Assembly (NCBI GenBank): GCA_030550585.1
Contig: JAUQPB010000002.1
Location: forward strand, 128,001-192,000
Direction: 5' to 3'
DNA from: Thermoproteota archaeon
GTDB taxonomy: Archaea; Thermoproteota; Thermoprotei_A; Sulfolobales; Ignisphaeraceae
Length of the DNA stretch: 64,000 bases
This document shows, one piece after another, positions 3,332 through 5,029 of the stretch; within the stretch, counting starts at the first letter, position 1, and every line of letters begins with the position of its first letter. The notes beneath the pieces were generated by a model that did not search any database, was not told the origin of the DNA, and saw only the letters and a list, made by a program, of their open reading frames with translations. Both the position numbers and the translations under genes were made by a program.

Positions 3332-4636
3332 ATGCTTGTAAGGGCACAAGGGGAGTATGTTTCAGCAATTATAATGATCATTATAATGGTTCTTTTCACG
3401 ATCTTAGCATCTGAGTGGGGTACATACATTACGCAACTAGGTTATAAAATGATTAATGATATGAAATCATCTAAAGAGAATTTGGATTTAGACCTTCAAT
3501 ATGAAGATAATGGATATAAACTATTTGTGGTGAACAAATGGAGTGGAACATCAATAATAAAGGGTCTTATCATTCTATACAACGACTCTATGGCGCAATA
3601 TATAAACATGTCTAGTATAATAGTGCCTGTAGGTAGTGCTACAACACTAAGCATTAATTTGTCTAATTATCCAAATGTAGATAGGGTTTGCATATACACA
3701 AGCAACTTAAACCTCTTCTGCCGCCCCCTTTCAAAATCTCATCAATTAACACTAAATGTAGAAGAAGGCTATTGGTATGCCATACCAAAAAGTATTCTTG
3801 GAAACTCGAGTGGCTATAAAATTATAGAATCTAGAACAGGAAAAGAAATACAAGCATATACATGGGATGCCAATAGAAGTTACATAATCTTCTATGCAGA
3901 CACCTCAACTACTTTTACTATTCAAAAAAGCGACGAGCAATTGCCAATATTAGATACAAAGTCGTGGTTTAAGCCAAATATTGTCGCACCTCTATTAGAA
4001 CTGGATGTGGTACACTCGTTTGATTGGACGATTAATAGCGTCTGTGGTGTAGGGCCTGTCTATGGCTGTGGATATGCATATCAATATGCATATACAGATA
4101 TCAAAGAAGAGTCTTTTTGGTTTGATGGCAAAGCTGTACACTATGTAGCAACAATAGAATACTCTTTCCCCAACCAAATTGAATTCTATTATTATGCAGG
4201 AGGAGAAATAACTAAGATTTCGCTTAAGCTATTCGGTACTGACAATATACCAGAATGGAGTGATTGGTCTTCAAAGATAAAAATAATTAACATCGAAATA
4301 GCAGCCAATTTAGGTGCCTATATAAATGGGGATGCCCGGATCATGAACAAGCAATTCACATCCCTCGGCAATCGATGTGTCCTCAGAAGCGATGTGGAAG
4401 GCGCATATTTTAGTTATGCGCCATCACAAGTAGAAATAACATCAAATACCACTGCAATTATAACCACGAGTAATAGTGAAGGAGCTATATGCGCATTCGA
4501 GCCATATAATATAGTAAAAGTTAAAGTCGAAAGCAACTTACCACTTGTATCTATACACATCAATAAGATTTATCAGAGCAGTCAACAAGGAATTATATTT
4601 GCTCCTAATGGAAATAAAATTAGAATAATTGGCTGA
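3332..4636 (+). CDS. Large pilin-like protein / putative adhesin
   Basis: RA|QGEYVSAIIMIIIMVLF class III signal; long beta- and aromatic-rich extracellular region. Confidence 0.6.
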   Translation: MLVRAQGEYVSAIIMIIIMVLFTILASEWGTYITQLGYKMINDMKSSKENLDLDLQYEDNGYKLFVVNKWSGTSIIKGLIILYNDSMAQYINMSSIIVPVGSATTLSINLSNYPNVDRVCIYTSNLNLFCRPLSKSHQLTLNVEEGYWYAIPKSILGNSSGYKIIESRTGKEIQAYTWDANRSYIIFYADTSTTFTIQKSDEQLPILDTKSWFKPNIVAPLLELDVVHSFDWTINSVCGVGPVYGCGYAYQYAYTDIKEESFWFDGKAVHYVATIEYSFPNQIEFYYYAGGEITKISLKLFGTDNIPEWSDWSSKIKIINIEIAANLGAYINGDARIMNKQFTSLGNRCVLRSDVEGAYFSYAPSQVEITSNTTAIITTSNSEGAICAFEPYNIVKVKVESNLPLVSIHINKIYQSSQQGIIFAPNGNKIRIIG

Positions 4637-4727
4637 TCTATTAACAAACTAAACTTTTTATCTTAATTATATATCTTCAGCATTGTATTTGTTTACCTAT
4701 CGATGCTTACATAAAGTAAAGCTTTAG

Positions 4728-4813
4728 TCCCGCCGGGGGGACTTGAACCCCCGACCACCCGGTATCCGCCCGCCTCACTACAGCCGGGCGCTCTGCCGCT
4801 GAGCTACGGCGGG
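4728..4813 (-). tRNA. tRNA-Tyr(GTA) with 14-nt intron at canonical 37/38 position (intron 4764-4777); CCA not encoded
   Basis: Reverse complement folds as a cloverleaf: CCCGCCG acceptor stem (C1:G72, archaeal Tyr), CCCGG-CTGTAG-[TGAGGCGGGCGGAT]-A-CCGGG, GGTTCAAGTCC T-loop. Confidence 0.95.
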
Positions 4814-4920
4814 TTTTGCCAATCAAGTTCTATATATTTTTAGCTTTATAAGGTTTTATTCTCATTATTCAGTATACTAAAATATAATAAAATAGTCAGC
4901 AAGTTTTTGGTGTTGATAAG

Positions 4921-4972
4921 ATGATGAGGGAGGTGATCTTATTTGATTGATGATAGAAGATCAACCGACTGA
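4921..4972 (+). ncRNA. C/D box sRNA; guides complementary to 16S rRNA 3' end and 5' end
   Basis: C ATGATGA, D' TTGA, C' TTGATGA, D CTGA; guides GGGAGGTGATCTTAT and TAGAAGATCAACCGA. Confidence 0.8.
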
Positions 4973-4980
4973 ATAGGTTT

Positions 4981-5029
4981 TCAGCCCATGAAAGTTGCAT
5001 CATCTTTCAGAATCTGCCGGAATCATCAT
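4981..5029 (-). ncRNA. C/D box sRNA
   Basis: Minus strand reads ATGATGA-TTCCGGCAGATT-CTGA-AAGATGA-TGCAACTTTCATGGG-CTGA. Confidence 0.85.

Follow-up and report, generated by a model that had tools for sequence, protein, structure and literature searches.

Among the box C/D RNAs, vertebrate U13 and yeast snR45 have complementarity to the 3'-terminal part of the small-subunit (SSU) rRNA, and they guide acetylation in helix 45 via bipartite pairing. It has been reported that boxes A'/A of U3 pair with nts 6–22 of yeast 18S rRNA and that this pairing is mutually exclusive with the central pseudoknot (Sardana et al. 2015, PMC4340053). In archaea, the accessible text of Dennis et al. 2015 (PMC4644070) describes double guides with distant targets, for which a chaperone role was proposed, and takes at least 9 consecutive Watson–Crick pairs to rRNA, including the N+5 nucleotide, as the criterion for a guide target; the sRNAs sR155 and sR305 of I. 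hospitalis are listed there without a predicted target (NP). According to excerpts of two reviews (PMC3608112, PMC8339473), archaea have no known assembly sRNP that resembles U3 or acts independently of modification.

The window analysed here is the whole stretch of 64,000 nt, G000:C7:128001–192000, where G000 is the code of the host genome and C7 its contig 7; this archaeal genome is 1.76 Mb in size, with a G+C content of about 41% and a hot-spring metagenome origin. Judged by its boxes, guides and relatives, the element at 4921–4972 on the plus strand is a genuine, conserved archaeal box C/D sRNA of the long-range double-guide type. The boxes described in the original prediction were confirmed; the C box and the D box are both retained in 55/55 relatives, and the first C-box base, a position that the search pattern left free, is A or G in every one of the 55 family members. 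As listed in Table 1, the C box is followed towards the 3' end by a 15-nt D' spacer, TTGA, TTGATGATAG, AAGATCAACCGA and CTGA. The internal D' and C' boxes contain GA dinucleotides, and their register is ambiguous between two parses; the preferred and most economical one would comprise a 15-nt D' spacer, TTGA, a 3-nt loop, ATGATAG and a 12-nt D spacer, and the A at position 6 of the C' box may pair with the T at position 1 of the D' TTGA. The same unusual D'/C' module, in which TTGA is directly followed by T/GTGATGA, is seen in three other candidate sRNAs of the host genome (two on contig 4, one on contig 7), and two parses of it are possible: one has no loop between the boxes and a D spacer of 15 nt, the other a loop of 3 nt, a C' box that is degenerate and a spacer of 12 nt. 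Among the other candidate C/D sRNAs of this genome, 12/12 spacing is dominant (13/34 parses), and the D spacer is 12 nt in 26/34. Genes for fibrillarin and Nop5 are adjacent on contig 4 (PF01269, 350.8 bits; PF01798, 258.2 bits), and two PF01248 matches represent L7Ae-family genes. With the curated Rfam families, only tRNA passes the gathering threshold in the window and none does so for the sRNA; its best Rfam C/D match, sR49, scores 17.4 bits where the threshold is 50.

Table 1. Features of the sRNA locus and its surroundings, in window coordinates.
Feature	Position	Strand	Basis or remark
434-aa ORF without Pfam match	3332-4636	+	Pfam
Intron-containing tRNA, 86-87 nt, divergent neighbour of the sRNA	4727..4813	-	ARAGORN; intron apparent
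Putative archaeal promoter: A/T-rich TATA-like box, ~30 nt 5' of the C box	4880..4892	+	Inferred from sequence and position
C box ATGATGA	4921..4927	+	Read from the sequence; TGATGA core required by the search pattern
D' spacer, 15 nt; core GGAGGTGATC at 4929-4938	4928..4942	+	G.U pairs at 4928 and 4939
D' box TTGA, GA kept, 3 nt off the canonical register	4943..4946	+	Comparison of relatives
D'-C' loop TTG, 3 nt (preferred parse)	4947..4949	+	Module recurrence in the genome
Alternative C' box TTGATGA, zero loop, 15-nt spacer	4947..4953	+	Second parse
C' box ATGATAG in the preferred parse, with a D spacer of 12 nt	4950..4956	+	RTGATAG common to G000, G007, G008 and G003
D guide AAGATCAACCGA; core GATCAACCG at 4959-4967	4957..4968	+	Pairs with 16S
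D box CTGA	4969..4972	+	Read from the sequence
Possible archaeal terminator: T4 run, 6 nt 3' of the D box	4978..4981	+	Inferred from sequence only
Second C/D box sRNA, fully canonical, convergent with the first, 8 nt away	4981..5029	-	Box layout
Putative SPOUT RNA methyltransferase, 290 aa, PF02598, 198 bits	5078-5950	-	Pfam
Translin-family protein, PF01997, 40 bits	6131-6862	-	Pfam

One 16S rRNA gene was detected in the host genome, at C7:16349-17857; it starts with ATACCGGTTGATCCTGCC (ATACCGGTTGATCC in the longer form) and ends with GGCTGGATCACCTCCT. When this 16S was aligned with the guides, the proposed match to both of its ends was recovered: the D' guide forms 10 Watson–Crick bp with nt 1499–1508, the anti-Shine–Dalgarno (anti-SD) sequence, which a G.U pair at each end extends to nt 1498–1509, and the D guide forms 9 bp with nt 5–13, where its N+5 nucleotide A4964 pairs with U8 inside the duplex. 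For both guides, the run of at least 9 consecutive Watson–Crick pairs includes N+5. Such runs were attained by 302/20000 shuffles for the D' guide and 627/20000 for the D guide with 15-nt spacers, and by 269/20000 and 353/20000, respectively, with the 12-nt spacer versions; each guide match alone is modestly unlikely, while the two together at the 16S termini are clearly non-random, and it was conservation in relatives that settled their acceptance as such. Better targets elsewhere, a possibility raised together with the original prediction, did not appear: in the rRNA operon and its flanks, the top match of either guide is a 16S terminus, and complementarity to the 51 tRNAs examined reaches at most 6–7 nt. 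Elsewhere in the operon, the D guide also matches the 16S-23S spacer by 8 bp and the 23S trailer by 8+3 bp; these matches were set aside as chance-level for 8-mers, and the family consensus D guide pairs by just 5+3 bp at the trailer site.

Two traits of the D guide tell against a methylation guide: its duplex measures just 8–9 bp in most members, and its position 11 (window 4958) is A in every GATCAACC-class member read, a mismatch with 16S C14. Two further words were observed around the 16S gene. In the 16S-23S spacer, GGGGTTGATCCCCTGATGAGC (C7:17971-17995, about 50 nt upstream of the 23S) repeats 8 nt of the 16S 5'-end word, with a TGATGA resembling a C box after them; in the leader, about 162 nt upstream of the 16S on G000:C7, the 9-nt word TCCAGCCGC is complementary to 16S nt 1492–1500, a complementarity that is borderline against chance (about 0.05 expected by our own rough estimate).

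The target word of the D' guide, 10 nt long, occurs three times in the genome when both strands are counted, namely at the 16S end, in the antisense of the sRNA itself and at one other site. This rarity, together with the fact that the D' guide is a perfect Shine–Dalgarno sequence, would suit an RNA whose GGAGGUGAUC binds the anti-SD of the finished 30S subunit and modulates initiation or hibernation; such mimicry is nevertheless highly improbable, given that the element occupies precisely the place of a guide, in a C/D sRNA family with canonical D' boxes, and that nothing points to a regulatory context. It had also been considered that the same element could merely serve as the Shine–Dalgarno sequence of a 9-codon TTG ORF at 4943–4972; the frame does exist, but it is trivial.

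A BLAST search of 40 relatives recovered homologues of the sRNA, full or partial. The C box together with the D' guide word is present in 55/325 genomes of the order, in one copy each, and the reversed control gave 0; the family was collected partly by exact guide match, so the invariance of the guide looks inflated. By GTDB family, it occurs in 16/25 genomes of f1 plus the host genome, 35/52 of f3, 1/1 of f4 and 2/14 of f6, and in 0/67 of f8, 0/63 of f10, 0/47 of f13 and 0/29 of f2. Four more f1 genomes carry the sRNA with the D' variant GGAGGTGAAC, which has one mismatch and still forms 8 contiguous bp including N+5; the mismatch faces an unchanged 16S end, as read in G010. In-register pairing of the D guide with 16S nt 5–14, with a Watson–Crick pair at N+5, is seen in 22/55 members, and its CAACCG core is kept in 10/55, while 23/55 have other D guides. 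In the variants GATTAACC (G012) and GGGATTAATCGT (G027), a G-C pair becomes G.U, with the host 16S as proxy, and pairing is preserved; the own 16S 5' end of G012 was read and is unchanged, and the 16S of G027 was not recovered. No compensatory 16S changes are possible among the genomes compared: CCGGTTGATCC is identical in G010, G012, G017, G220, G380, G403, G452, G454 and G536. Where the 16S 3' end is assembled (G010, G012, G380, G403, G454 and G536), it reads GGATCACCTCC. As for the 16S genes of G012, the match at C10:76876-78570 spans 1695 nt against a 1478-position model and may hold an insertion or intron, and a second, fragmented copy lies on another contig (C2:404859-406112).

The D guide alone, GATCAACCNNCTGA, is found in 116/325 genomes of the order, against about 40 matches of the reversed control, and is concentrated in f10 (49/63), f7 (7/8) and f1 (20/25); outside the sRNA family, it serves as a normal D guide, spaced 12 nt from a C' box, beside other D' guides. 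Of about 337 genomes of the phylum sampled outside the order, 9 have the C box plus D' guide word, with canonical D' boxes and unrelated D guides. A constant coupling of the anti-SD guide to the 5'-end guide was therefore rejected, the partner guides there matching other sites. When public genome contigs were scanned with the C box plus D' pattern, the listed matches were mostly a bacterial stop codon followed by a Shine–Dalgarno sequence, and among those listed there were two useful Thermoproteota MAG loci (L059, L062).

The predicted modification sites follow from the spacing of the boxes. In 44/55 members, an nnGA D' box (CGGA, CTGA, CAGA, TAGA, CCGA, AGGA or GGGA) comes directly after a 12-nt spacer, which places N+5 on the C of GAUC-ACC (C1502 in the host 16S), well inside the duplex. 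A 15–16-nt D' spacer is limited to the host genome and three close relatives (G007, G008 and G003); the canonical D' position, which in the host lies at 4940–4943 and reads TATT, is TATT, TATA or TATG in these four, and TTGA or GTGA is found 3–4 nt further. Further genus members appear to have 13-nt D' spacers (CATGA, CAGGA, CAAGA). With the D' box of the host at TTGA, the N+5 nucleotide C4938 pairs with G1499 in the last Watson–Crick pair; the position is indeed at the edge of the anti-SD duplex, as had been pointed out, and a terminal-pair N+5 is poor methylation geometry. The D' register thus drifts within the genus (12, 13, 15 or 16 nt) with constant D' pairing, so that the pairing is conserved and the D' methylation site is not, which fits selection on pairing over a specific methyl group. 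The geometry of the D guide is canonical in all members (CTGA after a spacer of 12 nt, in the host on the preferred parse), and this guide most likely directs 2'-O-methylation of 16S U8. Read from the box spacing, both guides obey the N+5 rule at the family level. By alignment, U8 would be the equivalent of E. coli U13, a helix 1 nucleotide beside the central pseudoknot, and C1502 that of E. coli C1533.

The drift of the D' register is also the main ground for regarding the sRNA as an assembly factor that acts by pairing only, an analogue of U3 (and U13) without a need to methylate. Such an RNA would sequester 16S nt 5–13 and delay helix 1 and the central pseudoknot, keep both the anti-SD tail and the site of 3' cleavage masked up to a late stage of assembly, and clamp the ends of pre-16S or circular pre-16S. 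The 5' site lies in the segment that matches the U3-bound nts 6–22 of yeast 18S, where, as far as the consulted part of PMC4340053 describes it, U3 excludes the pseudoknot, and the D' guide is perfect in the host and its three relatives despite a displaced D' box and unalignable flanks. In addition, the 16S ends can pair mutually and the guides would out-compete this end-to-end helix, the leader has no cis U3-like complement of at least 7 nt to 16S nt 5–13, and according to the review excerpts cited at the outset (PMC3608112, PMC8339473), archaea are not known to possess such an RNP. Against this stand the canonical methylation geometry, seen at D' in 44/55 and at D in all members, and the use of standard guide positions; neither a 5' extension nor a box A/B-like element is seen, and no stretch of at least 9 bp complementary to the 400-nt leader was found. 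Furthermore, the D guide recurs as an ordinary guide in many unrelated sRNAs, and beyond the order, the D' guide stands beside D guides without a target at the 5' end. The non-methylating U3/U13-like RNA of the original prediction is left unsupported by the prevalence of the 12-nt D' spacer and by the ordinary D guide in 116 of the 325 genomes, and we regard a pairing-only role as unlikely; such weight as it keeps is due mainly to the register drift.

The degenerate canonical D' position may also be read in the opposite direction, as half of a decaying guide: in the host, only the D guide on U8 would be functional, the D' and C' boxes would be degenerating, and the D' guide would be a recent relic. 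This would account for TATT, TATA and TATG at that position in the four-genome subclade and for CATG, CAAG and CAGG elsewhere in the genus, and a D' guide mismatch is already present in four f1 genomes. However, the 10-nt guide core is intact although the flanks and the D'-C' linker are unalignable among G000, G008 and G003; the GA-containing D' box (TTGA/GTGA) at +3/+4 is accompanied by a matching C' box; and at least one further candidate sRNA of the host genome combines a D' spacer of 15 nt with a target duplex of 12 bp that includes N+5. Decay of the D' half is, in view of these features, quite improbable.

The two target sites are themselves related. Co-folding of the 16S flanks gives a processing stem between about -80 to -20 upstream and +10 to +70 downstream, and the 16S ends can pair in a 3+5+4 bp helix of nt ~6–19 with ~1492–1504. 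Since the guides complement two mutually pairing 16S strands, they resemble those strands and can pair together. Guide–guide pairing, which the original prediction had described as unusual, does exist (6 bp plus 2–3 bp across a bulge), but its stability is ordinary: the sRNA hairpin of -10.9 kcal/mol has a z of -1.48 and is equalled by 18/200 shuffles. A switch between a closed hairpin and a target-bound state was accordingly dropped, the hairpin being no stabler than shuffles and explained by the complementarity of the 16S ends. At 75 °C, the calculated duplexes are -9.0 kcal/mol for the D' guide with the 16S 3' end, -5.6 kcal/mol for the D guide with the 16S 5' end, -7.2 kcal/mol for the 16S 5' end with the 16S 3' end and -1.8 kcal/mol for the D' guide with the D guide; the two guide duplexes summed exceed the 16S end-to-end helix, and by these energies the sRNP could swap that helix for two guide helices.

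Taken as a whole, the sRNA probably guides methylation at both 16S termini and, for a short time, bridges them. It would be expressed from its own promoter as an RNA of about 52–65 nt and assemble with L7Ae, Nop5 and fibrillarin. The D guide on 16S nt 5–13 would lead to 2'-O-methylation at U8; the D' guide would bind the last 10–12 nt of the 16S, the anti-SD tail, and in most members direct methylation to the C1502 equivalent, while in the host and its three relatives, the D' methylation would either move to G1499, on the edge of the duplex, or disappear, with the guide kept perfectly. The pre-16S processing stem would have both target sites at its base, where they are able to pair mutually, and one sRNP on both sites may hold the ends together transiently and keep them from pairing with each other. 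Bridging of this kind would correspond to the 'chaperone' behaviour of long-range double guides proposed earlier for other archaeal sRNAs.

The neighbourhood of the sRNA contains a second C/D sRNA. The adjacent sRNA consists of ATGATGA, 12 nt, CTGA, 3 nt, ATGATGC, 12 nt and CTGA. Its D' guide forms 8 bp with 16S nt 14–21 in the host and, in 7/10 relatives, 10 bp over nt 12–21 with N+5 at U15; its D guide pairs with the 16S around U52 by 10 bp including one G.U. It adjoins the first sRNA in six genomes (G000, G007, G008, G003, G018 and G021) and lies elsewhere in the genome in four g2 genomes. The two sRNAs jointly would cover 16S nt 5–21, and the adjacency is consistent with the 16S 5' end being a modification hotspot. 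The second sRNA lies 48 nt downstream of the stop codon of the SPOUT gene. In 9 genus-g1 genomes, the host among them, a PF02598 homologue lies no more than about 1.5 kb from the sRNA, while the loci of other genera have none there; this synteny, limited to the genus, was set aside as functional evidence. On the other side, ARAGORN assigns the tRNA at 4727–4813 as Thr(AGT) here and the syntenic gene in L006 as Tyr(GTA), and the gene is probably an intron-containing tRNA-Tyr; its synteny with the sRNA was seen at 8/15 loci scanned, all of genus g1. With low probability, the sRNA family and the adjacent sRNA could together be the archaeal counterpart of U3 function: sRNPs on 16S nt 5–21 and on the anti-SD/3'-cleavage region would invade the end-to-end helix and time central-pseudoknot formation and 3' maturation, with methylation secondary, or dispensable as in the subclade with 15–16-nt spacers. 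Whatever the balance, the D' methylation geometry is intact in some natural variants and not in others, and pairing and methylation are therefore separable experimentally, while the ordinary guide reading predicts two unreported 2'-O-methylations at the extremes of the 16S.

In comparison with described systems, a literature search, with most subscription journals outside its scope, found no published C/D sRNA that pairs with both 16S ends; neither guide occurs in the Pyrobaculum supplement (PMC6009581), a pair of terminal 16S sites is absent from Table 3 of PMC4644070, and searches of the supplement of that article gave no site predicted within the final ~25 nt of a crenarchaeal 16S. Among the closest systems are the long-range double guides of the sR15 and sR17 type of N. 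equitans, which likewise have C/D/C'/D' boxes (PMC4644070); in the accessible text of that source, their rRNA sites are distant in sequence and near in secondary structure, and chaperoning is proposed together with methylation. The present sRNA differs from them in that its sites are the extreme 16S ends, which the base of the processing stem brings together.

The likeness to U3 is that of a box C/D RNA pairing with the 5'-terminal SSU segment that later forms the central pseudoknot, as excerpts of PMC4340053 describe it; by position, the D-guide site at 16S nt 5–13 lies within the segment matching nts 6–22 of yeast 18S. U3 itself is distinguished by a 5' domain that pairs (boxes A'/A) outside the C/D core, by 5' ETS binding, by U3-specific proteins and by the lack of methylation; none of these distinguishing features is seen in the sRNA, which pairs via a standard D-guide position. 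Unlike U13 and snR45, it uses a standard 12–15-nt guide against the very last 16S nucleotides. A further parallel is the Tetrahymena TtnuCD24 (RF02300), whose consensus has the guide GGAUCAACCAC followed by CUGA in the same register against the SSU 5' end, with N+5 on an apparently homologous U; it is eukaryotic, however, its other guide is unrelated, the match reaches 16.2 bits against a threshold of 75, and the literature search found no paper naming it.

Counterparts of the two guides are found in I. hospitalis. In supplement 1 of PMC4644070, as far as consulted, the RNA-seq-detected sR155 has the D guide GGGATCAACCGG followed by CTGA, matching the D guide of the sRNA, and the likewise detected sR305 has GGGAGGTGATCA, matching its D' guide; the D-guide genome match G188:C1:1192261 coincides with the listed position of sR155, and position 11 of the sR155 guide is G. 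The arrangement is different in that the two guides reside on two separate sRNAs and that the C box of sR305 is degenerate (PMC4644070). The lack of a predicted rRNA target for either sRNA in that listing counts against the methylation-guide reading. On that reading, the two 16S termini would be plausible targets for sR155 and sR305. Set against the statement in the excerpted reviews that no U3-like archaeal sRNP is known (PMC3608112, PMC8339473), the family offers a concrete, conserved candidate, in which one small RNA combines complementarity to the U3-site-equivalent 5' segment of the SSU rRNA with complementarity to its anti-Shine–Dalgarno tail.
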